This document shows, one piece after another, positions 6,675-41,524 of a stretch of DNA of 64,000 nt. The first letter of the stretch is position 1, and every line of letters begins with the position of its first letter. The notes beneath the pieces were generated by a model. The model was not told where the DNA came from, did not search any database, and saw nothing but the letters and a program-made list of their open reading frames with translations. The stretch spans positions 32,001-96,000 of the forward strand of contig JBGSMV010000042.1 of NCBI GenBank assembly GCA_041739995.1, written 5' to 3'. The position numbers and the translations under genes are program-made. The stretch is from Bdellovibrionota bacterium. GTDB lineage: Bacteria > Bdellovibrionota_C > UBA2361 > JBGSMV01.

Positions 6675-7178
6675 ATGTCGCGTGAAGAAGAGCTCAAAGC
6701 TAGGCTGGCGAGTGACAGCGGTGACCCCGCATTCGCTGAGTTATCAGACCTATATATGGCCGAGGGAAAAGTCGGAGAGGCTTTAACCACGCTCTTGTCT
6801 GGACTCTCTGCGAACCCTGGCTACCACGTCGGCCGCTTGGTGCTGGCTAGACTCTTTGCGCACTTAGGATACGCACCTTTCGCGGTGCGCGAACTCGTCA
6901 CTCTGCGCCAACAGAGACCCGAATGTGAGTCCATTCGGCGATTGCTCGAGGCTATCTCACCCGGTAGTTCAAAGCTTTCTAATGATTCGTGGGAAGATTC
7001 CGCTCGTCAGTTGAGCCAAGACGGGGAGACTGGCGGAGCTGAAAGGGTGGAGAGTCCCGAACGTAGGCAAAACTCCGCGCCCTCTGCTTCGATCGAGGAA
7101 ACTCTCGCAGAAGGTGAGTTCGACTTCGATATCCTATCCGACCTTGCCGAAGATAAAGAAGGCTCAAAGGAGCACTAG
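6675..7178 (+). CDS. TPR-like protein
   Basis: 'FAELSDLY...GL.ANPGYHVGRLVLARL' TPR-type helices, acidic C-terminus. Confidence 0.7.
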   Translation: MSREEELKARLASDSGDPAFAELSDLYMAEGKVGEALTTLLSGLSANPGYHVGRLVLARLFAHLGYAPFAVRELVTLRQQRPECESIRRLLEAISPGSSKLSNDSWEDSARQLSQDGETGGAERVESPERRQNSAPSASIEETLAEGEFDFDILSDLAEDKEGSKEH

Positions 7179-7491
7179 GCTCCCACTCAACTGAGCCTGT
7201 TCTGTAAGCTCAGGAACTCCTTGAGGGAATACTGTTGGCCATGGGGAGGAGGTTTCGGTCAAGTCTCTAAGCCACTGGATCGAACTAACATTCTAGGATA
7301 GTTACCTTATTCCCCGGGTGCTTTGTCGAGGAACTCAAAAGCGTATACAATGAGAGGCCGATCTTGTCGGGCTTTCAATCAGATAATTCTTTGTTTCAGC
7401 ATGTATGGGGAAACCTAAGGAACCAACCGCTTCGGCGCCTACATCTTCCGAGATAAAGAGGGGCTCTGCCTCTTCGGGAGAAACGATTATG

Positions 7492-7535
7492 GAGTCGACT
7501 AGAGAGTCGGCTAGAGAGTCGGCTAGAGAGTCGAC
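7492..7535. repeat. 12-bp tandem repeat x~3.7 (GAGTCG(G/A)CTAGA) upstream of accB
   Basis: Units start at 7492, 7504, 7516, 7528. Confidence 0.85.
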
Positions 7536-7569
7536 AGTGGTGGTGCTACCGTCTCGCGAAGGAAGTTCG

Positions 7570-8103
7570 ATGGATATTAAGGAACTTGAACAGATAGTTT
7601 CAATTTTAAAGCAGAACGAGGTGACTCGTTTTGAGCTTGAGCAAAAAGGGGTCAAGATAAAGTTATCGCGTCTGGGAAGTGACTCTCCTCGAGTTCGAGT
7701 GCAGGGTAGTCCAGTCGGCTCAGTAGAGCATGCGATTGCACCGCATCACTTTATGGGCGGGCAGCACGTTGGTCAGGCCGCCTCGACTCACCCCGCGCCT
7801 GCGACTCCAATTGCCTCGCATGCTACAAATGGGGCAGGAGCAGCCGTATCACTAGATCATCTCACTAAAGTGGATTCTCCACTGGTCGGAACCTTTTATC
7901 GCAAAGCTTCACCTGACGCAGAGCCTTTTGTGCGTGAGGGGCAGTCCGTACGTAAAGGCGATACTCTTTGTATCGTAGAAGCGATGAAGCTCATGAATGA
8001 AATCGAGGCACCGGTTTCGGGTAAGATAGAGAAGATTCTTGTTCAGGACTCACACGTAGTTGAGTTCGGAGAGGTACTGTTTCTCATAGATGCATCCGCC
8101 TGA
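7570..8103 (+). CDS. accB: Acetyl-CoA carboxylase biotin carboxyl carrier protein
   Basis: MDIKELEQ N-terminus (likely start 7570; ORF open from 7405), 'SPLVGTFY', biotinylation motif EAMKLMNEI. Confidence 0.96.
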   Translation: MDIKELEQIVSILKQNEVTRFELEQKGVKIKLSRLGSDSPRVRVQGSPVGSVEHAIAPHHFMGGQHVGQAASTHPAPATPIASHATNGAGAAVSLDHLTKVDSPLVGTFYRKASPDAEPFVREGQSVRKGDTLCIVEAMKLMNEIEAPVSGKIEKILVQDSHVVEFGEVLFLIDASA

Positions 8104-8242
8104 TCGAATTACTATCGTGACCAGAAGAGTAGTAATTTTCACTTTGAGTTCAGATAGCGCGACCCTCGTGCCCCGGCGGGCAGTGTCAATGGCAGCTTCA
8201 ATAGCGCTGATGTCCCTTCTAGCGAATTAATAAGAGGCTGAA

Positions 8243-9625
8243 ATGGAAAAACCTCCTTTTAATAAAATTCTCATTGCAAACCGTGGCGAGATTGCCGTTC
8301 GAGTCATTCGTGCGTGCCACGAACTTGGTATTAAAACCGTCGCGGTACATTCCATTGCGGACAAGGACGCGTTGCATGTGAAGCTTGCAACTCAGAGCGT
8401 GTGCGTAGGACCTGCATTAGCAAGGGAAAGCTATCTTAACATAGCTTCAATCATGTCAGCGGCTGTGGCGACTGGCGCGGATGCAATTCATCCGGGGTAT
8501 GGATTTCTCAGTGAGAATTCCGGCTTTGCAGAAATTTGCGGCAGCTGTGGAATTACCTTCATTGGACCGTCCGTTCGCGCCATGCGTGTCATGGGCGATA
8601 AGGCGCGTGCGCGTCGAGCGGCGGATAAGGCAGGCGTTCCTACTGTTCCTGGCGACAGCCGCGGATTTCTTGATGGTGCTGAAGCGCTCGCGGTGGCTGA
8701 GCGTGCCGGGTTTCCTATCTTATTAAAGGCCTGCGCCGGCGGCGGGGGTCGTGGAATGAAAGTGGTACAGAGCAAAGACGAGTTCTTGAATTTGTTTGCC
8801 ACGGCGCAGCGTGAAGTTGAAGCGGCGTTTGGAGATGCGCACCTTCTAGTTGAAAAATATCTTCCGAAAGTTCGACACGTAGAGGTTCAGGTCGCAGGCG
8901 ATAATTCGCATAACATTATTCATTTGGGCGTGCGAGATTGCTCAATCCAGCGCCGACACCAGAAGCTTATCGAAGAGTCGCCATCGCCCGGATTACCGGA
9001 CGAGTTTACCAAGGAGATCTGCCGATCGGCGGTGGAATTGTGCAAATCGGTTCACTACACCAACGTGGGAACCTGCGAGTTCTTGGTTGATGTTGAAGCA
9101 ATGAAGTTCTACTTCATCGAGATGAATACTCGACTACAAGTCGAGCATCCGGTAACCGAGCTGCGCTGCGATATCGACCTGGTGAAGGAGCAAATTCGCC
9201 TTGCGTCGGGAAAAGATCTGTCGTTGTGCCAAGCCGACGTGAATCCAACTGGACATGTCATCGAGGTGCGAATTAATGCGGAAGACCCCCGAAAGATGAT
9301 ACCAAGCCCTGGGCTGGTAACTAGTTATCATGCGCCTGGTGGTCGTGGGGTGCGCGTCGATTCTGCTTTGTATCATGGTTACACGGTGCAGCCGTACTAT
9401 GACTCGCTGGTGAGTAAGTTGATCGTTCGTGAAGCAACTCGTGAGCAGTGCATTCGCAAGCTTTTGGTTGCTCTTGATGAATATTTGATTGAGGGTATCC
9501 GCACCAATATCGAGCTGCACCAGCGCATCTTGAATCACCCTGATTTCCGTAGCGGAAATGTGTGGACCAGGTTCCTTGAGTCGGTCAATGTGTTCGATGA
9601 TATTCCGCATGAGGCCGCGGCCTAA
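8243..9625 (+). CDS. accC: Biotin carboxylase
   Basis: 'KILIANRGEIA', 'HPGYGFLSEN', 'GGGGRGM', 'EMNTRLQVEH', 'RINAEDP'. Confidence 0.97.
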   Translation: MEKPPFNKILIANRGEIAVRVIRACHELGIKTVAVHSIADKDALHVKLATQSVCVGPALARESYLNIASIMSAAVATGADAIHPGYGFLSENSGFAEICGSCGITFIGPSVRAMRVMGDKARARRAADKAGVPTVPGDSRGFLDGAEALAVAERAGFPILLKACAGGGGRGMKVVQSKDEFLNLFATAQREVEAAFGDAHLLVEKYLPKVRHVEVQVAGDNSHNIIHLGVRDCSIQRRHQKLIEESPSPGLPDEFTKEICRSAVELCKSVHYTNVGTCEFLVDVEAMKFYFIEMNTRLQVEHPVTELRCDIDLVKEQIRLASGKDLSLCQADVNPTGHVIEVRINAEDPRKMIPSPGLVTSYHAPGGRGVRVDSALYHGYTVQPYYDSLVSKLIVREATREQCIRKLLVALDEYLIEGIRTNIELHQRILNHPDFRSGNVWTRFLESVNVFDDIPHEAAA

Positions 9626-9679
9626 CTCCCGGCCTAGTTTCGGAGGAGTGTCGAGGGCGTTAGATACCAGACGTTATAA

Positions 9680-10741
9680 TTGGAGACTGTTCGTATGCTG
9701 CATATTGGTAGGAGCCTCTCGGCTGTTTTCCCCTCAGGCTTGGCGAGTGCCACACTCTTGTTCGTATCTCTGATTGGCCCAGAAACAATAAGTAGTGCGT
9801 GGGCTGATGCGCGTCCACAGGTTGTGGTTGTAGAGAAAGTCTTCGACTTTGGTACAGTTTCTCAGGGTACAGTGGTGAAGCATGATTTTACTATTCGAAA
9901 CGGCGGAGACTCTGACTTAGTAATTCAACGGGTTATCCCAGCGTGTGGATGCACTGCGGCGACGGCATCAAGCGAGCCCATTGTTCCCGGCGCCGAACGC
10001 GCGGTGCAGGTATCCTTTGATACGGCGGGGTTCTCCGGTGAGAAGTATAAAACGGTGCGCGTTAATACCAACGATGTTGATAACCTTTCAGTGGTGTTGG
10101 CGTTGCGTGGCGTGGTTGAGCCCGACGTAGTTGTAGAGCCACAGAGCGTGATGTTCGAGGAGGTCATTCGGGGAAGTTCGGAGCCCGCTGAAGAGCAGGT
10201 GGTGACCATTTCTTTGAAGGAAGGAGCCAAAGTAAAGGTGACTGGCGCGCGGGCCTTTAGTCCACACGTTACGGTGAAAGAGCTCGAGCGTTCTGCGGCC
10301 AGAGCCAAGTTCTCAGTCTCGATTGATCCGTCCGCTCCTCTGGGTGAGCTGAGAGATAGAATGGTGATTGGAGTCGATGGTGGAAAGGAGTCAACCATTA
10401 ATGTGCCAATATTTGCAGTGGTGCGCGGGCAACTTGCGTTGCAGCCGCCTCAGCTATCCTTTGGTGTGATCGAGGGCAGTGAGCTCATAACCAGGAGTGT
10501 GAAGTTAGTGAACCGGGGTGCTTCCCCGGTGCGGGTGAAGGAAGTGCGGTCCGCCAACCCTGCAATTTCAACCAGCGTTCGAGAAATTGAGGCCGGAAAG
10601 ACATTTGTGGTCCAGGTTCAGCTTAATCCCGCTCAGGTAAAGCGGGACCTCAGAGCTTCGGTTGAGGTGCTTACCGACAGCCCTGATGAGCCATCTCTCT
10701 CCCTGAGTATTTTTGGGATTCTTCCACCCCCATCCACCTAG
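9680..10741 (+). CDS. Exported DUF1573-domain protein with tandem Ig-like domains
   Basis: 'FDFGTV.QG..VKHDFTIRNGG..DLVI..V.PACGCT' DUF1573 signature; start uncertain. Confidence 0.85.
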   Translation: METVRMLHIGRSLSAVFPSGLASATLLFVSLIGPETISSAWADARPQVVVVEKVFDFGTVSQGTVVKHDFTIRNGGDSDLVIQRVIPACGCTAATASSEPIVPGAERAVQVSFDTAGFSGEKYKTVRVNTNDVDNLSVVLALRGVVEPDVVVEPQSVMFEEVIRGSSEPAEEQVVTISLKEGAKVKVTGARAFSPHVTVKELERSAARAKFSVSIDPSAPLGELRDRMVIGVDGGKESTINVPIFAVVRGQLALQPPQLSFGVIEGSELITRSVKLVNRGASPVRVKEVRSANPAISTSVREIEAGKTFVVQVQLNPAQVKRDLRASVEVLTDSPDEPSLSLSIFGILPPPST

Positions 10742-10999
10742 AACCTCTTCAAAGCGAAGCAATTGGCTATTGCTCTATAGGGCAGACTAGAGAGAGCTTC
10801 TTATTCCTTGAAGAGTTGTCCTATTCGAACCGCGTTTTGTTCGGAATTCAATGATTTAGCTCCAATGCTAACGTGCCGAATCTTCCTCGTGAGGCTCTTG
10901 GTTTTAGGTGACAGAATAGCCGGGAGGCTCGTCGATTCGGCGAGAACAGATTCGCTTAGATCTCTTCGCGCTTTTGCGTGAGTCGGTGATATCTCGCCT

Positions 11000-12829
11000 T
11001 TGGCGCGCATACATATGGTTCCCACAGGTTTTTCGATTTTGGCTCGATTGCTTCGGAAGGTCTTGGTTATAGGACTGTTGTTCTCCTGTGCGCACTCCTG
11101 GTTCGAGGCATACGCCGAAACTGTATCCATTTTTGATGTTCCCTTTCGAGTCGATAGTGTTCGCCCGATTGATGCCGAGTCTGTTGAGGTATCGGTGGGA
11201 AGCGAGCGTCGTATCGTGTCCAAGGCTGCGCTTCAAGACGCGGTGGTTGAATTAACGTTCGCGCCCAACGGTCCAGGAATTTCAATGGACCCAGAACGCA
11301 TCGCTACTTTCGTCGAGAAAAGTCTTTCGAGCGGGAAGCTTGAATATGCAGGACTCGCCCTTCCTTCCTACCTAGCCTCCCCACAGATTGATACCCTTGA
11401 AGCTCGCGATATCGTCGAGGAGTTTGCAAAGCTCCCAAAAGCTACGGAGGCGTTTAAAAGCGCGCTACTCACCATCCGTGCTCACGGAGAGGCCTACTCT
11501 GAATTTCGACACCGCCCTGACTTGGTGGCGGTGGTCTTATTTGTAATTGGTCTTGAGGATGGCGTTTGGCTTAGAAGCAACGGGTTCCGTTGGGTGTTCG
11601 CCTTCTCGGAGTCCTTACGCGGATATGTACTCGATCGACTTGCGCGAGCGGTGGTGAATGAGGAGCGTGAGCTCATTCGACGCATTCCAAACGTAGTGCG
11701 TGATTCCTTAGGGGATGAAGATCCTTTCTTTCGCAATGCGCGATTGCTTTCTGAGCGCGTACTGCAAGTACTTGAATATAACTCCGATCAGGCCGTCGAA
11801 ACGCTCTACCCACTCGTTGAAGCTACTCGGCGAGATGCGGATACTCTTCGCATCCTCTATCCGTTGGTTTCAAACACACTTCATGACGTGGCGGAACAGC
11901 GATTGATGGCAGGGCGACCCGCGGAAGCGCTCATGGTGATCTCGCGCACGGACGTAGATCGTAGAACACCAAGGACCCATGAGGTGATACTACGCGCACT
12001 GGAGCAAATTCCCCATGATGATAGGGAGCTCGTTCGAGATGTGGCAGTCGAGAGAATGTTGACCACAATCGCGCTTCGAGATGCCGAAGTGCGCACCAAG
12101 TATGAAGCGATGCTGGAGGCGCAGATTTTGGAGGCGGCTCGCACTGCTGATGTTTCAAATGGATCTGTGCTGCTTTCTAAGCTTACAAGAATTCGATCTG
12201 ACCCTGATCCGCGGAACGACGATCTTCGGATTGAGTTAGCATTAGCTGAGTTGCGATTGGGAAGTCGAGAAGGGGCGCTCACTCACCTGTCAGGAGTTCG
12301 TCTTGGAATTCCAATGTTCGCACGGCTCAAACTCGGGCTTGCGGGCCTATATGTGAACCGATTGCTCGCATTTTTCTGCATTGTCGTTCCAGCCATTTAT
12401 GTAGTGTGGTTTGCGATTGTTGAGTTGCGGCGACTTCGAGACCTGCGCCTAAAGGACGTGGAGCACAGACTTCATGCGCGCGCGGTGCGCGGTGCCGCGG
12501 GAAAGTCTCAGGATTCGGATTCAGACGTACAGTCGGAAAAGGCTGGAATGAATGGAACTTCCGAAGTGAAGTATTTCATTCAAGGCAAGCTAAACAAGCC
12601 CACTGATCCGCGGTTGATTGAGTACGCGCACTGCTTGCTTACCCTTGGGTTGCAGCAGACCGCGTCTTTGAGCGACATCAAAAACTCCTATCGTGGGCTA
12701 GTAAAGCAGATTCATCCCGATCGACTTCAGGAAAACAAAGGGCTCGCTTCAGATCGATTTATAGAGATAACCCAGGCCTACGACAGGGCGTTAGAGCTCA
12801 GACGGCTCACGGGCATCGAGGAGGCTTGA
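11000..12829 (+). CDS. Membrane protein with large helical exported region and C-terminal J (DnaJ) domain
   Basis: Signal-like N-terminus, TM near residue 455-475, 'LGL..TASLSDIKNSYRGLVKQIHPD...FIEITQAY'. Confidence 0.8.
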   Translation: MARIHMVPTGFSILARLLRKVLVIGLLFSCAHSWFEAYAETVSIFDVPFRVDSVRPIDAESVEVSVGSERRIVSKAALQDAVVELTFAPNGPGISMDPERIATFVEKSLSSGKLEYAGLALPSYLASPQIDTLEARDIVEEFAKLPKATEAFKSALLTIRAHGEAYSEFRHRPDLVAVVLFVIGLEDGVWLRSNGFRWVFAFSESLRGYVLDRLARAVVNEERELIRRIPNVVRDSLGDEDPFFRNARLLSERVLQVLEYNSDQAVETLYPLVEATRRDADTLRILYPLVSNTLHDVAEQRLMAGRPAEALMVISRTDVDRRTPRTHEVILRALEQIPHDDRELVRDVAVERMLTTIALRDAEVRTKYEAMLEAQILEAARTADVSNGSVLLSKLTRIRSDPDPRNDDLRIELALAELRLGSREGALTHLSGVRLGIPMFARLKLGLAGLYVNRLLAFFCIVVPAIYVVWFAIVELRRLRDLRLKDVEHRLHARAVRGAAGKSQDSDSDVQSEKAGMNGTSEVKYFIQGKLNKPTDPRLIEYAHCLLTLGLQQTASLSDIKNSYRGLVKQIHPDRLQENKGLASDRFIEITQAYDRALELRRLTGIEEA

Positions 12830-25497: not shown

Positions 25498-26076
25498 CTA
25501 GACCCCGTACTTTTTCTTCAGGCGGTCGAAAAGTTCGCAAGCCTCTGTGGGATTAGTGGAAAGCATTTCGGCGTAGCCGCGCGTGTCGGTATTGAAGTCT
25601 CTAAAGATGTCCGAGCTTTTTCGTCCTGCATCGACTTCTTTTTGAAGAAGTCCGTGCAGCTCCATTTGTTTGATTGCCGCATCCGCTACTGAGCAGGTGC
25701 CGCCACCTTTACCGCCATCTTTGGCGAGCTGCTCCATCGTGATCATGCCTTCGGCTTCCTTTGCAAGGTTGAGCTCGTACTTTTTATCAAGTTCGGCCAC
25801 CTTGGCGCAGGCTTCGGTATATTTCTCTTGGGCGATCAATTCGCTCACGGTGCCGCTCTCGGTTTGAAGGCCGGCGGCAAACTTAGTCATCCCTTCGCCA
25901 CCAATCGCGAAATATTTACCTACCACTTTGTTGAGCGCCAGCATTTTGTTGTTAGCTTGATTTGAGTCGCAGCTGTTACCGCCTGAACATGAAGTGAGGT
26001 TCATGCACAGCAATAGGATGCCTACGGGGACAAGCAGCCAGCGGAAGGGAAGAAAGGGTAGGGTGATGTGTTTCAT
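25498..26076 (-). CDS. Hypothetical lipoprotein with two-fold internal repeat
   Basis: Likely start 26076 (ORF open to 26187), lipobox LTSC; repeated C...TEAC.......KKY. Confidence 0.7.
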   Translation of the reverse strand: MKHITLPFLPFRWLLVPVGILLLCMNLTSCSGGNSCDSNQANNKMLALNKVVGKYFAIGGEGMTKFAAGLQTESGTVSELIAQEKYTEACAKVAELDKKYELNLAKEAEGMITMEQLAKDGGKGGGTCSVADAAIKQMELHGLLQKEVDAGRKSSDIFRDFNTDTRGYAEMLSTNPTEACELFDRLKKKYGV

Positions 26077-26210
26077 GCGCCCGAACAAATCACGAAATCG
26101 ATTGTGTTTCCAGCGCAAAATGCGTGAGTCGTTACTCAATGGCGTGAGGTCTCTGGGATGGATTGAAAGGGTGGCACGGTGGGGCAACTCGCACCGAAGG
26201 GGGTGGCGCG

Positions 26211-26435
26211 TTACGCAATAATATCAAGAATGCTTTTATCTAACTCTTCCGCGGTTTTGATGACCTCTGCAGAAGCCTTTATCTGTATGTCAGCGGTCTT
26301 TTGATCAATGATTCCTTTGACAGGGTCTTCTGTACTCTCTGGTCGAAAGGCGCTGGTGATGCGGCTAGAGGCATCGCTCAAGCGTTCAAAGCCGTTTTTG
26401 AGTCCACGAAGACCAATACCCAATACTGAATCCAT
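26211..26435 (-). CDS. Small flagellar rod/hook-like protein (only N- and C-terminal D0-type helices)
   Basis: 'VLGIGLRGL.......ASSRI' resembles rod/hook N-helix; 'ASAEVIKTAEELDKSILDI' resembles Flg_bbr_C. Confidence 0.75.
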   Translation of the reverse strand: MDSVLGIGLRGLKNGFERLSDASSRITSAFRPESTEDPVKGIIDQKTADIQIKASAEVIKTAEELDKSILDIIA

Positions 26436-26443
26436 GAGGTGAT

Positions 26444-26470
26444 GGATCGTCTTTGTTGGCCAAAGGCTTA
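26444..26470 (-). promoter_or_regulatory. Putative sigma28 (FliA) promoter
   Basis: Minus strand TAAG-N15-GACGATCC, 8 nt before the ATG; same layout as the flagellin promoter. Confidence 0.65.
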
Positions 26471-26598
26471 AGCTTTGGTGGCATTTGCATCACAAACAAG
26501 ACCGGTCTTGGCTGTAATTGACTGAAGTTCTTATTGTTTTCGGCGATGTTGGTGCGGGTGGCGCCTGCTGGTGAGCAACTCTCGATCGAAACATCCGA

Positions 26599-27040
26599 TT
26601 ATAACACGGTGGACGCGGGGGGCACGGAGGATGATTCTTAAAGAACTCACAGGGTAGGTTATTGACGCAGCAATTAAGGTGCACTCAGCACTTGGGCCAG
26701 GGCTCTTTGAGCAGGGCTATCAAGTCTGTCTTCAGCACCAACTTTTGATGAGAGAGGTAAGAGTCTTTTCGGAAGTTGGAATTCCAGTCATCTACGACGG
26801 TGTCTAGCTAGAGGTTGGTTAAAGAGTCGACCTCTAGGTCGAAGACCTTTTAATAGTTGAGCGTAAGTCCGTAGAGCGCCTTGCCCTCGTACACAAGGCC
26901 CAGCTACTTACCTATCTTAAACTTGCACACAAACCAGTTGGGCTATTCCTTAACTTCAACGTCCCTCATCTTAGAGACGGAATTGTTCGAGCAGTTAACT
27001 CGCCGCACCCTGCGTGTCCCCCGAGACCTCCGCGTTAAAA
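26599..27040. repeat. Imperfect 32-bp inverted repeats bracketing the GxxExxY gene
   Basis: 26599-26630 vs reverse complement of 27009-27040: 25/32 identities by eye, built from 9-mer units. Confidence 0.75.
26631..27038 (+). pseudogene. GxxExxY family (PD-(D/E)XK-like) pseudogene
   Basis: Manual translation: 'VHSALGPGLFEQGY...RVDL*VED..IVERKSV...HKAQLLTYLKL....GLFLNFN'; in-frame stops at 26655, 26805, 26820, 26835. Confidence 0.9.
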
Positions 27041-27108
27041 ATTTCGTTGCAAATTACCACAGCTAGCCCAGAGCATTTTCGACAGCCAAGCAAAGCTCGG
27101 AAACTGCC

Positions 27109-28014
27109 CTAGGCGATATCTTTAAGGTTTTCTACGATCATAGTACCCACGCCTTCGTTTAAGAACAGCTCCATGAGCAAAGAGTCACTCCTGGTTCCGT
27201 CTATTATATGGGCGCGGTGCACACCGCCCTTTATCGCTTCAAGGCAAGCTTGGACTTTGGGCAACATGCCCGCCGTAACCTTGCCCGCTTCGACCATATC
27301 TTGAATCTGTTCAATATCAGCGTAGGAGACCAAAGAGGTTGGTTCAGATACGGAACGAAGCAGTCCAGGAACGTTCGAAAGTACGATCAGTTTTTCAGCG
27401 CCGATCGATTGTGCGACCTTAGAAGCAAGTGTGTCGGCATTGATATTAAAAATCTGCCCGCTCGTGCTCGCCGCTATCGGTGAAATTACAGGGACAAGAT
27501 TTTCCTTAAGAAACTTGCCTATCAGCTCCGTATTTATGGACTCGATCACGCCGACGTTCTCGAAGTCCACTAATTCAGTGCCGCCTTGATCTGATTGGAC
27601 ACGAAGTGGGGGACGCTTTGACGCAAGCACGATTTGAGCATCGGCACCCGAAAGCCCTAGTGCACGCACTCCATGTTTACCGAGTGCCGTGGTTACTGAT
27701 GTGGCCAGTTCGCCACAGAACACCATTACGGCAGCCTTCAGCGTCTGGTCGTCGGTGATACGTCGGCCCGCCTTTTTTACGGTCTCTAGCCCAAGTCTTT
27801 TGCTCAGCACATCAAGCTGAGGGCCACCACCGTGTATCAGCACAACCTTCATGCCAATGTGATGAATCAAGCTAATCTGACGGGCGACGTTTTCAAGTAC
27901 CGCTCCAGTGCAGAGTTCGCCGCCAAGTTTTAGGACAAATGTCTTGCCCTGAAACTCACGTACATAAGGGAGAATTTCTGTAAGCGCTTCGATACGGTTC
28001 ATGGTGTTCCTCAT
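27109..28014 (-). CDS. argB: Acetylglutamate kinase
   Basis: 'FVLKLGG', 'HGGGPQ', 'RITD', 'NINAD', 'GMLPK'; alternative start 28002. Confidence 0.93.
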   Translation of the reverse strand: MRNTMNRIEALTEILPYVREFQGKTFVLKLGGELCTGAVLENVARQISLIHHIGMKVVLIHGGGPQLDVLSKRLGLETVKKAGRRITDDQTLKAAVMVFCGELATSVTTALGKHGVRALGLSGADAQIVLASKRPPLRVQSDQGGTELVDFENVGVIESINTELIGKFLKENLVPVISPIAASTSGQIFNINADTLASKVAQSIGAEKLIVLSNVPGLLRSVSEPTSLVSYADIEQIQDMVEAGKVTAGMLPKVQACLEAIKGGVHRAHIIDGTRSDSLLMELFLNEGVGTMIVENLKDIA

Positions 28015-28036
28015 TCCTCAGTGTCACAGTTCTTTG

Positions 28037-29068
28037 TCACAGGTCAGTTTTAAGAATTTTTAAAAGCAAAGCATTCTGGGCGTGCATTCGGTTCGCCGCT
28101 TGCTGCTCAGTAAGGCTGCGTTTGCTGTCCAGTACTTCATCCGCTACTTCAACGTTCCGTCTTACCGGTAGGCAGTGCATGAAGTAAGAATCATTTCCGT
28201 GAGCCATGACTTCCTGGTCCATTATCCAAGGAAGCAACGACTTGCGATGTTCTAGTTCAAGTTCGCGGTGTCCTATAAAGCCAGGAGGTGTCCAACTCTT
28301 TGCGTATACAATATCAGCTCCTCGAACCGCCTGTTCTTGCTCATAGAAGACCTCGACGGATCCACCAGAACTGCCTGCGGCACTCTGAATCATAGACATT
28401 ATCTTTGGATCGAAGTCGTAGCCTTCCGGATGGGCAATGCGCAGTTGCAGCCCAAGTTGTGCGGCAATCAGCGCCGTGGAGTGAGGAACCGCAAGAGGAA
28501 GTTGTTTGGGGTGCGGTGCCCAAGAGAGGGTAAAAACCTTGCCGTGTAGCTTGTTGCCGAAAGTTTCGCGCAATGTGAGGGCATCGGCCAAGGCCTGACA
28601 GGGATGCCAGCAGCTTCCTTCCATACTAATAAGGGGAATATCAAGATGCTTGGTGAAGGCCGAGAGCACTGGTTCATCTCGGTCTTCCTCCCAAGAGGAA
28701 AGCTTGGAGAATGCTCTGACGCACACCGCATCAAAGTACTGAGAAAGCACTCCCGCTGCATCTTTGATGTGCTCAGTGCGGTCCCTATACATCATGGCAC
28801 CGTCCGCAAATTCCAGAGTCCACGAGTCGGCTCCTGGGGAGAGGACGACCGATTGTCCGCCGAGGCGAGCAATACCGGACTGAAAGGAGGCTCTAGTGCG
28901 CAGAGACGGGTTAAAAAACATAAGAGCAAGTACTCGCCCTGAAAGAGACGAGGAGAAGTCACGCCAGTGGCTTGATTTTCCCTTGGCTGCGAGTGCAAGG
29001 GCTTCGTCCAGCTCTTGGAGCGTCAAATCTGAAGTGCTTATAATTGATCTAGAAGATTTAGAAACCAT
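28037..29068 (-). CDS. argF: N-acylornithine (acetyl/succinyl) carbamoyltransferase, ArgF' type
   Basis: 'FFNPSLRT', 'W.LEF..G..M....EH', 'HPCQ', 'WAPHPK.LP.AV', 'YAKSW', 'HCLPVRRN'. Confidence 0.9.
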   Translation of the reverse strand: MVSKSSRSIISTSDLTLQELDEALALAAKGKSSHWRDFSSSLSGRVLALMFFNPSLRTRASFQSGIARLGGQSVVLSPGADSWTLEFADGAMMYRDRTEHIKDAAGVLSQYFDAVCVRAFSKLSSWEEDRDEPVLSAFTKHLDIPLISMEGSCWHPCQALADALTLRETFGNKLHGKVFTLSWAPHPKQLPLAVPHSTALIAAQLGLQLRIAHPEGYDFDPKIMSMIQSAAGSSGGSVEVFYEQEQAVRGADIVYAKSWTPPGFIGHRELELEHRKSLLPWIMDQEVMAHGNDSYFMHCLPVRRNVEVADEVLDSKRSLTEQQAANRMHAQNALLLKILKTDL

Positions 29069-29121
29069 GTGTGCTGTCCTTCTTGCTGTTCCTCTTAGTC
29101 CGTCGACTATCTCAAGTTCCG

Positions 29122-30228
29122 TTACGGGAAAAGTGCGGCTGCGCAGAGCCCGGTAGTCTCAGGGATGTGGTACATCAAATTCATGTTTTGAATGGCATTT
29201 CCTGCGGCACCCTTTACCAGATTATCTAGCGTACTAATGACTACGACTTCGCTTCCTTGTTGCCGAACGGTTATGTCACAGAAATTTGAGCCGCGTACAT
29301 CGAGCACCCGTGGAGTAACGTCTCTATAGCGCATGAAGAACTCAGTCGCGCAGAATTTCCGGTAGAGTTCGACTACATCTACAGAGCCGTCGGGAATGGT
29401 AACGAAGCTTGTGGAATAGATTCCTCGCGAGAAGTTGCCAGAATGTGGAACCAGATGAATCTTGGTAGCGCCACTTTGCGCGAGGGAGAGCGCTTGCTCG
29501 ATTTCTGGGCCGTGCCTATGAGTCAGTACCTCATATGAACTCATGGATTCGTTTCTTGCTGGGTGATGTGTTTTGGCGGTGGCGGTCACGCCACTACCTG
29601 TGGATCCAGTCACCGCTGAGACTCTCGCAACAAGTGGATGTTTGCCAAAGTGAAGAACTAAAGGGAGAAGTCCCAGCGTTACGCAGTTTGCAAAGCAGCC
29701 TGGGTTTGCCACTAGTCGAGCAGACTTTATGCCGTCACGGGAAACCTCCGGCGTGCCATACACCGCCTCGGCAATCAGTTCAGGGCAGGGGTGCTGTTGT
29801 TTATAAAACTGACTAAAGTGTTCAGCGGAAAGTCGAAAGTCTGCCCCTAGATCAATGATTCGCAGATCGCCCGAGACAAAACGCTCACATTTGGATATGG
29901 CGCCGATAACCGGAGACGACTGAGCGTGAGGTACTGCAAAGAACAACAAATCAAGTTCCGCAAAAGCGCTATCGAGCACTTCGATAGGTGAGCCAAGCGC
30001 TGGTGGTTCAACAAAGATGAGGGGGCAAAGTCCTTCAAGCGACGGATGCACTGACGCCACGCTTTTCCCGGCATACTCTCTGGAGGTGACAAGGGCTAGA
30101 TCCGCTTGGACATGGTTTAAAAGCAGGCGCATGAGCTCTAGACCGACGTAGCCCGAGCCTCCGAATACGCCTACTTTGAGCGGTGCTCCACTCGAGGGCT
30201 GCCTCTGGTTTTCTAGAGACCTCTTCAT
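29122..30228 (-). CDS. argC: N-acetyl-gamma-glutamyl-phosphate reductase
   Basis: 'GGSGYVGLE', 'IDLGADFRL', 'ANPGCF', 'DNLVKGAAG.AIQNMN'. Confidence 0.94.
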   Translation of the reverse strand: MKRSLENQRQPSSGAPLKVGVFGGSGYVGLELMRLLLNHVQADLALVTSREYAGKSVASVHPSLEGLCPLIFVEPPALGSPIEVLDSAFAELDLLFFAVPHAQSSPVIGAISKCERFVSGDLRIIDLGADFRLSAEHFSQFYKQQHPCPELIAEAVYGTPEVSRDGIKSARLVANPGCFANCVTLGLLPLVLHFGKHPLVARVSAVTGSTGSGVTATAKTHHPARNESMSSYEVLTHRHGPEIEQALSLAQSGATKIHLVPHSGNFSRGIYSTSFVTIPDGSVDVVELYRKFCATEFFMRYRDVTPRVLDVRGSNFCDITVRQQGSEVVVISTLDNLVKGAAGNAIQNMNLMYHIPETTGLCAAALFP

Positions 30229-31289
30229 GGAAGCTCCTCACCGAAAACTTGCTTGTATACAATCCCTGCGAACTCCCTGCCATCGCGCATAGCATTAGCT
30301 GCCTGCAATTTGAGTCTTGAACGAATGAAGTTTTTGCCCACGTCATTATCTGTGCAGGGGCCACAAATCACGGTTATTTCGTGGCATGGATGGTCGGACG
30401 GGAGGTTCGACAAGAACTCGTGAGCGCCCCAAGCAGCTACTGGATCGTTTGCACTTACCACGTGGGCAGAGGTAAATTTCATAATCTCTGGATCAGAAAG
30501 AATCGACATTGTGCCGTACTCGCCCATGATGCCGTCACCAAGTTCTAACACGATGCAGTCTGGCTTCTTCTCGCTGAGAGCTGCGATGACGCCTTTTGCT
30601 GAAGTAACTGCGTTGTCCGCAGTTGAAGTAACTATACCCGCGTCGGTAAAGTTCAGCACCGCGACTGCGCCGCAATCTGCCATTGCAAGCGTATCGCGCA
30701 TTAGGCTTACGCCCGTGAGCTTTGCCGCGCAGACCTTCTTCCCGGCGCGAGTAATGTGTTTCACCAACTCACAGGCCGCTCTGGTTTTCCCAGCATCCAT
30801 GCAAGTTCCAGAAATAACAATGAGTGGGGCGGCGTGGGGCAGGTCTTGTCGGGGGCGAATTTCGCCTTCGAGAATGGACGCTGGGGAACCGACACGTTGC
30901 AGAAAGTTAGGAAAATGCTGTACTGCTCCAAGCACTTCCATGTCTATGGGACGTCCGAGTTCAGCGTTGTCGCTAGTGCACTTGCCGACCACGCCTCCCA
31001 GATTCAGTATCTGCAACGTTTCACCGACCTTAATGGATTGAGGCACAATGCCACTGAATCCCTTTAAGGCGTTACGGGGACCCAAGACGCCAACTACGAC
31101 GTCATCACGATAGAGGCGGCTCATGCGCCCGGAAGCCAGCTCGATGGTGTTATAGTCAGAGCGCTCGTTGAGCAGGCGCCCAGCGATGATGAAGCCCTCT
31201 TTCGCGGTGATGTCGGGTGAAAGCGTGAGCTCAGACGAGAGCTTGGCGTTTCGAGCGGCGGAAGCGATTTTATCAGCGACAATTTTCAT
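30225..31289 (-). CDS. DUF1611-like P-loop protein of unknown function within the arg operon
   Basis: 'GTCMDAGKT' P-loop, 'AAKLTG...RD...M.D.GA....FTDAG..ST', 'ELGDG'; 4-nt overlap with argC. Confidence 0.7.
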   Translation of the reverse strand: MKIVADKIASAARNAKLSSELTLSPDITAKEGFIIAGRLLNERSDYNTIELASGRMSRLYRDDVVVGVLGPRNALKGFSGIVPQSIKVGETLQILNLGGVVGKCTSDNAELGRPIDMEVLGAVQHFPNFLQRVGSPASILEGEIRPRQDLPHAAPLIVISGTCMDAGKTRAACELVKHITRAGKKVCAAKLTGVSLMRDTLAMADCGAVAVLNFTDAGIVTSTADNAVTSAKGVIAALSEKKPDCIVLELGDGIMGEYGTMSILSDPEIMKFTSAHVVSANDPVAAWGAHEFLSNLPSDHPCHEITVICGPCTDNDVGKNFIRSRLKLQAANAMRDGREFAGIVYKQVFGEELP

Positions 31290-31309
31290 ATGCGTTCCCT
31301 ATTATGTTT

Positions 31310-31963
31310 TCACTTAAGCTTGGGGCTCTCTCGTCCAGAGATTGAATTCAGAATTCGTAGGGTGCGAGGCGCGTCTTCCTCGGTCACCACCATCATGAGC
31401 TCAGTCCAGCAGCTCATCTCTTCGACCACGTTCACTCCCTGCTCAGCGAGCACCCCGTAGATGAACGACACCACCCCGGGGGTTGATTCTAGGCGCTCAT
31501 CAAACAGCATTGAGATTTGAACGAGGTCAGCGCTGGTCTTTTTTATCTTACCTCGGAACTGTGCGCGAATTTCGGGTAGGTAATCCTGATTGGTGATCAG
31601 CACCAACACTTCAGCGCCTTCAATCAGGTGAAAGTCTCCGCGCTCTTGTCGCACAAAGGACTGAAGGCGATGCAGCTTCTCAAAGTCGCGGGGCTTTTCA
31701 ACGATGGCAACCGCCATTTGGTTGGTAGTGCGGATCGAGACACTTTTAAGGAGTGCACGCACCTTGGTCTCAAGCGACTCTTTTCCTTTTACGCGCTCAG
31801 AGTAGCGACGGCATGCCACCAGCACAGCATCAAAGTGTTTATCGCCAAACTCCTCGCAGATTTCCCGTGAGAGCGCAGAATAGTTTATCAGACCGCGCTT
31901 AAGGCAGTCCCGCACACTAGGACGCTCTGAGATGTAGTGCTGGGTGAGGCGGGTGATAGACAT
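31310..31963 (-). CDS. ACT-domain putative transcriptional regulator (archaeal-like)
   Basis: Likely start 31963 (ORF open to 32029). N-terminal 'DCLKRGLINYSALSREI...AVLVACRRY' helical/HTH-like part, C-terminal ACT 'TPGVVSFIYGVLAEQGVNVVEEMSCWTE'. Confidence 0.75.
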   Translation of the reverse strand: MSITRLTQHYISERPSVRDCLKRGLINYSALSREICEEFGDKHFDAVLVACRRYSERVKGKESLETKVRALLKSVSIRTTNQMAVAIVEKPRDFEKLHRLQSFVRQERGDFHLIEGAEVLVLITNQDYLPEIRAQFRGKIKKTSADLVQISMLFDERLESTPGVVSFIYGVLAEQGVNVVEEMSCWTELMMVVTEEDAPRTLRILNSISGRESPKLK

Positions 31964-32032
31964 GGGCGAGAAAAGAGATTGGGGGTTTGGGCGCGCTGCG
32001 CCCGCTATCGATTTCGCAATCTTGGTCAACAG

Positions 32033-32138
32033 TGTCCAGCATTGGACTACTCTGATTGTTTATCAATGCGAGCTGCGGATCAAGGGCAACGACAGGTCTC
32101 AAGCCCGAAGACGGACATAATTGTCCTATATCGGACAA
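32033..32138. promoter_or_regulatory. Candidate operator palindromes TGTCC-N6-GGAC in the divergent arg intergenic region
   Basis: TGTCC-AGCATT-GGAC at 32033-32047, TTGTCC-TATATC-GGACAA at 32121-32138, extra GGACA half-site at 32113. Confidence 0.55.
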
Positions 32139-32221
32139 GAGAGTTCTTCGCAGTTGGAGCTATTCTTGATGTTCGTGATAGCCTTTAGCCTCACGTTACG
32201 ATCAATCAAGGTGAGCGAGAG

Positions 32222-33439
32222 ATGCCTAAGAAAGTAGTGTTAGCATACAGCGGCGGTTTAGATACTTCATTTTGTATTCCCTATCTGAAGGAAGGTGGTT
32301 TCGAGGTGACTACCGTAACTGCGGATACGGGAGGATTTTCAGACTCAGAGCTGAAGACCATTTCGCAGCGATCAAAGGAGCTCGGCGCAACCCAGCATAT
32401 TACTGTGGATTTGAAGGAGCAGGTGTATCAACGCTTTGTCTCCTACGTCATTAAAGGCAATGTGCTGAGAGGGCAAGCGTACCCACTGTGTGTGGGAGCA
32501 GAGCGCGGCATCCAAGCCGAGGCTCTTGTAAGAGTGGCTCAGGAAGTGGGCGCACAGGCCGTGGCGCATGGCTGCACCGGAGCGGGAAACGACCAGGTGC
32601 GCTTTGATATTTCTATCAAGAGTCTTGCGGGAAATTTGCAGATTATTGCGCCCATTCGTGAACTGGATTTGAGTCGAGAAGAAGAGGTGCGGCGCCTTGC
32701 CGAGTGGGGCTTCGATTTTCCAAGCGTAAAAAAGAAGTATTCAGTAAACCAGGGCATCTTGGGCACGACTATCGGTGGCGGTGAAACGCATGATTCCTGG
32801 ATGAAGATTCCAGAAGAAGCCTGGGTCATCACCAAGTCACCTGAGGCTTCCGGAGCTAAACCAGCAGAAATCACCATTAAGTGGGAAGCGGGAATGCCTG
32901 TTGAGCTAGACGGCGTCACCTTTTCGAATAAGGATAGCAACAGTCATGAGCTCCTTGTGCGCCTGAATGAGCGTGGCGGAGCGCTTGGCGTTGGACGAGG
33001 TATTCACATCGGAGACACAGTGCTTGGAATCAAGGGCAGAATAGCCTTTGAAGCTCCGGGTGCCATGATCTTGATCGCAGCTCACCGTGAGCTTGAGAAG
33101 CTTGTGCTCACGAAGTGGCAAATGCAGGTCAAAGACCAGGCGGCCAGTACATACGGCATGCTGTTGCATGAGGGGCAGTATTTTAATCCTGTAATGCGCG
33201 ACCTCGAAGCTTTGATGGACTCGAGTCAGAGCATGGTGTCGGGCGAAACGTTAGTGCGATTGGAACACGGTCAAGTCTCAGTGGTTGGAGTTCGAAGCCG
33301 GCATTCTCTGATGGACGCTCGCGCTACCTACGGCGAAGGAGCAAAGCTCTGGACCGGCGCTCAAGCTGAAGGCTTCTGTCTCATTTCTGGAGTTCAGAGC
33401 ATGTTGGCTGGGGGACGCAGTACGACTGCGAGGAGCTAA
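32222..33439 (+). CDS. argG: Argininosuccinate synthase
   Basis: 'VVLAYSGGLDTS', 'HGCTGAGNDQVRF', 'GIKGR..FEAP'. Confidence 0.96.
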   Translation: MPKKVVLAYSGGLDTSFCIPYLKEGGFEVTTVTADTGGFSDSELKTISQRSKELGATQHITVDLKEQVYQRFVSYVIKGNVLRGQAYPLCVGAERGIQAEALVRVAQEVGAQAVAHGCTGAGNDQVRFDISIKSLAGNLQIIAPIRELDLSREEEVRRLAEWGFDFPSVKKKYSVNQGILGTTIGGGETHDSWMKIPEEAWVITKSPEASGAKPAEITIKWEAGMPVELDGVTFSNKDSNSHELLVRLNERGGALGVGRGIHIGDTVLGIKGRIAFEAPGAMILIAAHRELEKLVLTKWQMQVKDQAASTYGMLLHEGQYFNPVMRDLEALMDSSQSMVSGETLVRLEHGQVSVVGVRSRHSLMDARATYGEGAKLWTGAQAEGFCLISGVQSMLAGGRSTTARS

Positions 33440-40135: not shown

Positions 40136-41524
40136 ATGGTGAGCGAAGCGGTTACATCTTTAGTTGTCTCTGATACGCAGCGAGCGTTGGATCTAGAGAT
40201 GGTTCCTTTCGACTTGCAGGCTACGTCTGCCCACGTCGAAATGCTTGGTACAGTCGGGATCGTTAGCCCTGATGTCTCCCAGAAGATTCTTGCGGCACTT
40301 ACCGATATTCGTGCCACTTACGAGCGCGGAGAGTTTTCCATTGATCCTGCGCTTGGTGCCCAGCTTACCCTTGAAAAGGAGGTCATCAGCCGCGTCGGGC
40401 AGGACGTTGGTCTCGCAATGCATACTGGGCGCAGCAGAAACGATCAGGTGATGGTAACGGAGATGCTGTATCTTCGCTCCAAAAGTAGCCAGATTATAGA
40501 GAAGCTAAACCAGGTGGTACAGGCGCTCTATGGGCGCGCTGGTGCAGGAATCAATGTTCCTATGCCGGGGTATACTCACATGCAGCCTGGCAAGCCGACG
40601 GCGCTCAGTCATTGGTACCTTGCACATGGGGACTGCCTTATGCGCGGAAGGGTAATGCTCGAGCAAGTGCTCGAGCAGTTCAACCAGTGCCCACTTGGAT
40701 CAGTGGAGTCTTTCGGCACCACCTGGCCGCTTGATCGCTTGTATGTGGCGCGGCGCTTAGGGTTCGCCCGGGTGTGGGAAGTGCCGCAGGACGCTATTTC
40801 TAACAGAGGGATTTTCCAACTCGCACTTTTAGGGGCCCTCAATCAGGTAGCCATTGGGATTGGAAGAATGGCGGCTGACCTGATGCTGTACACCACACAT
40901 GAATTTCAAATGGTGGAGCTTGGGGATGAAGTAGCGCAGCGCCTACATCCCATTACTGGTAGTTCGGTAATGGCGCAAAAGCGTAATCCCGATGCCTTAG
41001 AGCTTTTGCGTGGAAGTGCTGCTCAGTTTGGTGGTCTCTACGCCACCGTCAGTTCACTCCTTTGTGGATTGCCGACCGGATACAACCGTGACTCCCGAGA
41101 GGTCAAAGAGTACGCGGCAACCGCATTTCGTAAGATGAATGAGATGCTGCTTTCATTGGAGCAAGTGGTAGTCACCAGCACATTTGATGCGAAGCGCATG
41201 AGTGAAATGGTGGACGATAACTATTCGCTTACCACGGACCTTGCCGATCAACTGGCGCAAACTACCGGCATTCCATACCGCCGCATGTACAAAATTGTGG
41301 GCGTTGCGGTGGATGAGTTGATGCGCACCCGTCAGCCACTGCCGAAGCTTACGGCTGCTATGTTGAAGCGCTCTGCGGATGCGTTGAGCATTAAACTTGA
41401 AGTTGATGATGCGCTGATATCTCGCCTTCTCGACGCGCGCCATGCCCTTGAACGAAGGGCGCATATTGGCGGCACCGCTAAGCGCAGAGTCGAAGCTATG
41501 TTATTGCGACGCCGCTCACTTTAA
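40136..41524 (+). CDS. argH: Argininosuccinate lyase (divergent)
   Basis: 'HTGRSRNDQV', 'MPGYTHMQ', 'GSSVMAQKRNPD', 'YNRD'. Confidence 0.92.
   Translation: MVSEAVTSLVVSDTQRALDLEMVPFDLQATSAHVEMLGTVGIVSPDVSQKILAALTDIRATYERGEFSIDPALGAQLTLEKEVISRVGQDVGLAMHTGRSRNDQVMVTEMLYLRSKSSQIIEKLNQVVQALYGRAGAGINVPMPGYTHMQPGKPTALSHWYLAHGDCLMRGRVMLEQVLEQFNQCPLGSVESFGTTWPLDRLYVARRLGFARVWEVPQDAISNRGIFQLALLGALNQVAIGIGRMAADLMLYTTHEFQMVELGDEVAQRLHPITGSSVMAQKRNPDALELLRGSAAQFGGLYATVSSLLCGLPTGYNRDSREVKEYAATAFRKMNEMLLSLEQVVVTSTFDAKRMSEMVDDNYSLTTDLADQLAQTTGIPYRRMYKIVGVAVDELMRTRQPLPKLTAAMLKRSADALSIKLEVDDALISRLLDARHALERRAHIGGTAKRRVEAMLLRRRSL

Follow-up and report, generated by a model that had tools for sequence, protein, structure and literature searches.

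In a 64,000-nucleotide stretch of DNA from a Bdellovibrionota bacterium (GenBank assembly GCA_041739995.1, contig JBGSMV010000042.1, positions 32,001 to 96,000; hereafter the window), we found an arginine operon with a gene for a two-domain P-loop protein, here called X, which is likely the first enzyme of arginine synthesis. X would acylate the alpha-amino group of L-glutamate, most probably with succinyl, and so act as an analogue of ArgA, while being neither a GNAT protein nor ArgJ. The operon lies on the minus strand in the order DUF7523/ACT-domain gene, X, argC, argF', argB, with gaps of 20, -4, 53 and 22 nucleotides, the negative value being a 4-nucleotide ATGA in which the stop codon of X overlaps the ATG of argC, within CCATGAAG. 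This gene order and the overlap had been read from the letters alone in an earlier note on this DNA, and the coordinates of the open reading frames (ORFs) and their family matches bear both out. X is a genuine gene and not a chance ORF, as it has homologues to E=1e-185, and an AGGGAA motif lies about 7 nucleotides 5' of its start codon.

In the pathway that we propose, X would make N-succinylglutamate, which ArgB would phosphorylate and ArgC, translationally coupled to X, would reduce. A class-III aminotransferase encoded elsewhere would then yield N-succinylornithine, a succinyl-type ArgF' would convert it to N-succinylcitrulline, a desuccinylase would free citrulline, and ArgG and ArgH would complete arginine. 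Judging from the predicted structure, catalysis would take place in the C-terminal P-loop domain of X, which resembles dethiobiotin synthetase (DTBS) and DUF1611 proteins, and the N-terminal beta domain may help substrate binding. The acyl donor may be succinyl-coenzyme A (succinyl-CoA), by analogy with the DUF1611 protein DgcN, or, as in enzymes of the dethiobiotin synthetase type, a free acid (here succinate) that ATP activates.

Linkage of X to arginine genes across phyla

A scan of species-representative genomes gave 568 relatives of X, from which 80 loci were kept, coming from Bdellovibrionota, Elusimicrobiota, Acidobacteriota, Planctomycetota, Chloroflexota, Myxococcota, Pseudomonadota and other phyla. 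The window's proteins served as phmmer queries for the arg genes of these loci; the remaining ORFs were clustered and the cluster representatives named, among them argD, argH, argR and an M20 deacylase of the ArgE/DapE type. Of the loci, 73 have at least 1.2 kb of downstream sequence, and in 67 of them argC is the next gene downstream of X. The six exceptions are L022, L037, L046 (a frameshifted assembly), L050, L057 and L060, two of which, L050 and L057, have argF' directly after X. On the upstream side, argG directly precedes X on the same strand in 60 of the 80 loci. Where at least 5 kb of downstream sequence is available (53 loci), argB is found in 47, argF' in 42, argD in 35 and an M20 ArgE-like gene in 14, so that the co-occurrence of X homologues with argF' clusters, proposed in the earlier note as a check, is borne out.

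The fullest operons, argR-argG-X-argC-argD-argF'-argB-argE'-argH, hold every acyl-protected step, and glutamate acylation is thus the sole step without a gene save X. Moreover, in one Bdellovibrionota metagenome-assembled genome (MAG; locus L008) a true ornithine carbamoyltransferase (OTC; positions 6836-7780, plus strand; TIGR00658 332 bits, cut-off 281) replaces argF' in the X operon, suggesting that X tracks argC and argB and not acylcitrulline chemistry.

Two further arrangements were observed among the loci. Four from Chloroflexota (L032, L033, L053 and L064) have the order X-argC-argD-argB with no carbamoyltransferase nearby. Three labelled Candidatus Woesearchaeota (L011, L014 and L042) have a bacterial-type argG-X-argC-argD-argF'-argB-argE'-argH operon, which points to mis-binning or to transfer into DPANN archaea.

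Mutual exclusion of X and ArgJ within the phylum

The phyletic survey covered 124 genomes of the window's phylum; since these genomes are kin, the counts are descriptive and not a statistical test. Full-length X, defined as a match above 450 bits (observed range, 453-593 bits), is present in 18 genomes, and four more have a weak paralogue only. Of the 124 genomes, 64 have ArgJ; all of these are among the 106 others and none among the 18 X carriers, whereas ArgC, found in 94 genomes, is present in all 18 carriers. By row tally of the 94 ArgC-positive genomes, X occurs in 18 and ArgJ in 58, while another 18 have neither gene and no genome has the two together. This complementarity extends to the family level, with X in four and ArgJ in one of the seven genomes of family f20, and each in two of the five genomes of family f21, in different genera. 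Two-domain ArgA was found above the cut-off in none of the 124 genomes. ArgF' occurs in 16 genomes, 14 of them with X; the two without, G070 (62% complete) and G072 (86%), are congeners of a carrier, and four X carriers have no ArgF' at E<=1e-60. A candidate M20 deacylase is found in 16 of the 18 carriers (92-325 bits) and lies about 3.3 kb from X in G115, G117 and G118.

The window's own genome (G000; assembly 91% complete) has no ArgJ anywhere, no two-domain ArgA, the single match being argB itself, and no true OTC, so that its arginine must go through ArgF'. PF04768, the vertebrate-like NAGS domain, had no match in this genome, but the control of this search matched in no genome either, which makes the result uninformative. 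ArgD-type and weak M20/ArgE-type matches lie on contigs other than the window's. The best match to a profile of the operon-linked deacylases reaches 61 bits, in a 471-residue ORF on contig C27, and the sole desuccinylase candidate is an M20 protein of 443-471 residues (G000:C27:24338-25486; TIGR01910 113 bits, cut-off 217.6). First acylation and deacylation are therefore both without an assigned gene in this genome, and X can account for just one of the two.

Sequence family, predicted fold and phosphate-binding site

Searches of X against Pfam and NCBIfam gave no family at E<=0.001, BioD models included. Its sole relevant Pfam match at E<=10 is to the DUF1611 P-loop domain (PF07755; residues 151-197, E=0.035), at 14.0 bits against a cut-off of 25 bits. 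The PDB searched with the single sequence gave nothing significant, only a chance match at E=1.9, and a profile of 32 sequences (48-81% identity to X) gave as best match E. coli dethiobiotin synthetase, a non-significant alignment of 33 residues in the P-loop region (E=2). The family to which X belongs is large, with 2851 proteins at E<=1e-3 among 8000 candidates scored and 1751 representatives at 50% identity matching X at E<=1e-3 in a full HMMER scan; all 120 relatives listed are without Pfam domains, and where a name is given it is "hypothetical". Column identity averages 62% over both domains in the 32 sequences. Among 65 representatives with 27-49% identity to X, P83, G167, K168, K190 and E249 are invariant, and T169, D199, D216, D282, R72, E50, S10 and several glycines are conserved in at least 90%. 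A paralogous family (375-427 residues; 361-419 at the five loci of Table 1), which hhalign relates to X at 99.9% over 295 columns, shares the two-domain build and has a GK[S/T] P-loop; it occurs in genomes with ArgJ and outside arg operons. Neighbours of these paralogues include an Asparaginase_2 protein, a nitrilase-family amidohydrolase and a PIMT-like methyltransferase.

The AlphaFold model of X has two domains (predicted local distance difference test score, 92.6; predicted template modelling score, 0.91). Foldseek searches of the PDB with this model returned generic SIMIBI P-loop matches, including dethiobiotin synthetase, signal recognition particle (SRP) GTPases and MinD/ParA, the best at E=1.9e-5 and with query-normalized template modelling scores of at most 0.40. 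In structural comparison the nearest folds to the modelled P-loop domain appear to be those of DUF1611/DgcN and dethiobiotin synthetase, which are small-molecule enzymes, and a fold-likeness test places the domain with the solved DUF1611 structures. The N-terminal domain matches no Pfam family and none of the solved-structure representatives searched; it is all-beta. In DUF1611-type proteins the N-terminal domain is Rossmann-like. The label "DUF1611-like" in the earlier note therefore holds as the best structural description of the C-terminal fold, where the likeness is real, and does not extend to membership, as the Pfam score is below threshold. We conclude that X belongs to a separate family of two-domain proteins, with a catalytic domain distantly related to DUF1611 and DTBS.

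The phosphate-binding site separates X further from DUF1611. X has GTCMxAGKT and K190-LTGVS in place of the DUF1611 patterns GTDxxxGK[M/R] and xTGQTG, and the family motif is thus absent. X and its paralogues carry the canonical GK[T/S], whereas in seven DUF1611 proteins from genomes of the phylum GK is followed by M or R, and K190, which follows the second strand, is replaced at equal spacing by A, S or G. The P-loop of X aligns with GTDTEVGKT of DTBS, with K168/T169 and K190 on K15/T16 and K37 of the E. coli enzyme, although this alignment is the non-significant one at E=2. We take K15, T16 and K37 to act in phosphoryl transfer. A canonical GKT together with a DTBS-like K190 would make an ATP-dependent succinate-glutamate ligase possible, in which free succinate or another small carboxylate is turned into an acyl phosphate and passed to the amino group of L-glutamate. 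Such an enzyme would differ from DgcN, a CoA-dependent transferase to judge by the title of PDB entry 7XRJ and the wording of a preprint considered below. The invariant G167, K168, K190 and E249, the conserved T169, D199, D216 and D282, the DTBS alignment and the contrast with DUF1611 speak for the ligase, which by this analogy we regard as a tentative and rather improbable form of the reaction. If true, its chemistry would be of the DTBS/formyl-tetrahydrofolate-synthetase type and would give arginine synthesis a new start without the spending of acyl-CoA.

Carbamoyltransferase residues and the acyl group

The acyl group was approached through the carbamoyltransferase of the operon. Thr98, Pro191 and Glu307 of the window's ArgF' align with Glu92, Asn185 and Lys302 of X. 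campestris N-acetylornithine carbamoyltransferase (AOTCase). With the window's protein and 52 from the loci, 53 X-linked ArgF' were compared. Their residue at position 92 is T in 26, A in 17, Q in 5, P in 3, S in 1, V in 1 and Glu in none; position 185 is Pro in all 53; and 51 have V, I or E at position 302. In the succinylornithine-type ArgF', as given in a review of the family (PMC4581275), A/S/P/V/Q, P and V/I/E replace E92, N185 and K302 of the acetyl enzyme. The GapMind 2026 preprint (bioRxiv 10.1101/2024.10.14.618325) counts Thr at position 92 as similar and, for ArgF' encoded near the homologues of the protein that it treats, gives A/P/S/V at this position in 90%, and in 97% with I/T added. 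These residues suggest that the X-linked pathway is probably the succinyl variant, as known from Bacteroides, and that the NCBIfam name "N-acetylornithine carbamoyltransferase" (NF003384) is probably wrong in detail for the whole group. For the glutamate acylation considered in the earlier note, succinyl is then the probable group and not acetyl.

That X acylates glutamate with acetyl or another acyl group would fit the NCBIfam name of ArgF', the PDB title that makes DgcN an acetyltransferase, the ordinary OTC as partner in L008, and the fact that the mutational tests of position 92 did not include Thr. However, all three discriminating positions of ArgF' are succinyl-type (Thr counted as non-Glu), in 51-53 of the 53 linked proteins, which makes another acyl group improbable.

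Points against the assignment and other functions

Several points weigh against X as the first enzyme. Structural comparison puts DUF1611 only 0.3-2 Z units ahead of DTBS, 7xrj is absent among the 50 Foldseek matches listed for X, and hhalign of the X family with the seven DUF1611 proteins gives 84.6% probability over only 31 columns round the P-loop; with so narrow a lead and so weak a sequence link, the fold alone does not say acyltransferase. X would also exclude ArgJ if it did no more than travel with ArgF'-type pathways, and the kinship of the genomes means that the counts overstate their statistical weight. A conventional first enzyme in the window's genome is possible as well, because small GNAT synthases (Cabys_1732/BT3761 and the short Mycobacterium types) were not searched. 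Thr at position 92 lies outside the published A/S/P/V/Q list. Neither the window's genome nor its congener G067 has an ArgE-like M20 protein of about 360 residues, the best matches being 61-63 bits in ORFs of 471-479 residues, so that the last acyl step, too, is without an assigned gene in this genus and might in principle be the one that X carries out. Finally, the role is a prediction for every member of the family ("predicted" is also the word of the preprint).

One possibility is that X is an ArgJ-like transacylase, which would carry the acyl group from N-acylcitrulline or N-acylornithine to glutamate, alone or beside de novo synthesis, and so cover both acyl steps in genomes such as the window's. 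It would agree with the absence of ArgJ from all 18 carriers, with the lack of an ArgE-like M20 in these two genomes and, according to the preprint, of ArgE in Steroidobacter, and with an ArgE-like gene in the operon of only 14 of 53 loci. We nevertheless consider it unlikely: in 16 of 18 carriers an M20 candidate scores 92 bits or more, and in three of these it is encoded about 3.3 kb away from X; the conserved P-loop Lys and Thr and the conserved acids suggest a nucleotide or CoA cofactor, needless for a pure transacylase; and a cyclic pathway would still require a priming synthase.

An accessory role is equally doubtful. Many SIMIBI P-loop proteins are accessory nucleoside triphosphatases, HypB, UreG, MinD/ParA and SRP GTPases are among the matches, and the translational coupling of X to argC would suit a scaffold or activator of ArgB/ArgC, a G3E-like metal-delivery protein or an operon regulator in place of a pathway enzyme. 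Such a role would leave the missing first step and the exact complementarity with ArgJ unexplained, and it sits poorly with small-molecule enzymes as nearest folds (DUF1611/DgcN and dethiobiotin synthetase) and with the very high conservation in both domains. A deacylase (ArgE analogue) that hydrolyses N-acylcitrulline or N-acylornithine would provide the deacylating step that has no assigned gene in the window's genome, but it is very unlikely, since the matches of the SIMIBI P-loop fold have no hydrolase-type features, 14 of 53 loci have an M20 ArgE-like gene in the operon of X, the link of X is to argC, early in the pathway, and extends to an operon with an ordinary OTC, and the first step would then be left without an assigned enzyme in all X genomes.

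Of the two roles that the earlier note had set side by side, the replacement of ArgA is therefore supported by operon linkage across phyla, exclusion of ArgJ, absence of ArgA and a fold nearest to DUF1611/DgcN, whereas a deacylase or transacylase is disfavoured by the M20 genes in operons and carrier genomes and by the pairing of X with OTC.

Other features of the window and its genome

The features of the operon and the related clusters are given in Table 1. The DUF7523/ACT protein sits where other phyla have ArgR and, from its domains, may be an arginine-sensing regulator of undescribed type; its relatives adjoin X or argG in 6 of the 80 loci (L007-L010, L014 and L042). A scan of positions 26000-33000 for promoters and terminators found no more than in shuffles. 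On the 3' side of the operon, a 229-residue ORF (25498-26187, minus strand) has no Pfam or NCBIfam match and no phmmer match in the 80 loci.

A second ArgC/ArgD-like cluster, on contig C64, was considered as a source of ornithine and rejected as the arginine route, as it is a complete LysW-LysX-LysY-LysZ-LysJ cluster that would make lysine by way of aminoadipate, and a true OTC is absent from the genome. It comprises LysX (TIGR02144 346 bits), LysZ (NF010659 239 bits), a LysY/ArgC-like gene, LysJ and, as LysW, a 58-residue zinc-ribbon ORF with the end EDWGE. Its aminotransferase, or that of contig C67, would have to serve arginine as well. Between LysY and LysZ lies a 212-residue protein like EgtC and class-II amidotransferases (E=2.5e-7). 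No LysK-type M20 hydrolase was found in this genome, and the EgtC-like amidohydrolase may replace LysK in the cluster.

Table 1. Positions of X, its parts, the neighbouring arginine genes and related clusters (window coordinates unless a locus is named)
Feature	Position	Strand	Remarks
X	30225..31289	-	ORF with ATG start, 354 aa, two domains; candidate N-succinyl-L-glutamate synthase
X, N-terminal all-beta domain (aa 1-150)	30840..31289	-	near-invariant motifs DKIAS..RN, GR, VLGxRxAL
X, C-terminal SIMIBI-type P-loop domain (aa 151-354)	30225..30839	-	
X, P-loop GTCMDAGKT (aa 161-169)	30783..30809	-	
X, K190 codon	30720..30722	-	invariant in 65 sequences
X, E249 codon	30543..30545	-	ELGDG motif, Walker-B-like acid; end of strand 245-253
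argC	29122..30228	-	TIGR01850 313 bits, cut-off 233.6
argF' (knotted acylornithine carbamoyltransferase)	28037..29068	-	NF003384 384 bits; signature T98/P191/E307
argB (N-acylglutamate kinase)	27109..28014	-	TIGR00761 218 bits, cut-off 151.3
DUF7523 + ACT-domain protein	31310..32029	-	first gene of the operon; PF24367 E=1.4e-7; ACT_7 E=4e-4
argG	32222..33439	+	divergent; TIGR00032 328 bits
argH	40187..41512	+	TIGR00838 329 bits; coordinates of the match (G000:C22:72187-73512), not of the ORF
LysW-type lysine cluster	L087 (G000:C64:203000-221000), ~7199-12370	-	
X paralogue	L088:954-2213	-	
X paralogue	L089:1194-2279	-	
X paralogue	L090:1104-2282	-	
X paralogue	L091:900-2039	+	
X paralogue	L092:899-2068	-	

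Relation to known systems and significance

The replacement of ArgA proposed here is not a new idea, as the earlier note had supposed it might be; it is already predicted in print, and X is very likely a further member of the family concerned. The GapMind 2026 preprint predicts the same role for the Steroidobacter protein A0A127FCT3, on the grounds that its homologues are virtually always in arginine operons and never occur with ArgA; it describes operons of argB, argC, argD, argF', argG, argH, argR and sometimes argE, and a weak Foldseek likeness to DgcN (7XRJ, E=1.4e-7). X shares with that protein the linkage to arg operons, the exclusion of ArgA (here also of ArgJ), the likeness to 7XRJ and the non-Glu residue at position 92 of ArgF', each reproduced here independently. 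From this matching description the two very likely belong to the same family, though it counts against the identification that the sequences were compared by description only. No Steroidobacter record was among the matches listed from the scan of species-representative genomes, nor among those from a homologue search with a proteobacterial member or from a cluster look-up (10 matches), the latter two of which carry only names of Myxococcales/Pseudomonadota MAGs. X differs in coming from another phylum and in an operon that starts with an ACT-domain protein, not ArgR, and holds no argD or argE. To this prediction our analysis adds an N-terminal domain without a match in the PDB, canonical phosphate-binding residues that separate X from DUF1611, the occurrence of X beside an ordinary OTC, its complementarity with ArgJ within one phylum, and a paralogous family.

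Among characterized proteins, DgcN (PF07755; PDB 7XRJ) is a D-glutamate N-acetyltransferase, while 2G0T and 2OBN are DUF1611 structures of unknown function; a word search of the literature for DUF1611/DgcN gave irrelevant matches only. Dethiobiotin synthetase (BioD), CTP synthase and formyl-tetrahydrofolate synthetase are ATP-dependent SIMIBI enzymes related in kind to the P-loop domain of X, but X has no BioD family match, an extra N-terminal domain and an arginine, not biotin, context. ArgJ (TIGR00120) resembles X in supplying N-acylglutamate and has a complementary distribution in the phylum, with no relation in sequence or fold; it recycles acetyl from acetylornithine, which is impossible in the ArgF' pathway.

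According to a 2015 review, the gene for glutamate succinylation was still unidentified (PMC4490483); in GapMind 2020, BT3761, a GNAT protein, was put forward for Bacteroidetes (PMC7311316). BT3761 of Bacteroides thetaiotaomicron and Cabys_1732 would carry out the same reaction as that proposed for X, from a similar operon (argR, synthase, argG, argC, argD, argF'; same source), with an unrelated fold, GNAT in place of P-loop, and if so X would be a case of non-orthologous displacement.

As the prediction is already in the preprint, the gain for this window is modest. If the assignment is true, this step depends on an unrelated P-loop protein in Elusimicrobiota, Acidobacteriota, Planctomycetota, Chloroflexota, Bdellovibrionota and other lineages, which would bring a new fold among the N-acylglutamate synthases and a first function for a family of 1751 representatives. 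It would also close a recurrent gap in the reconstruction of arginine synthesis for many uncultured phyla.

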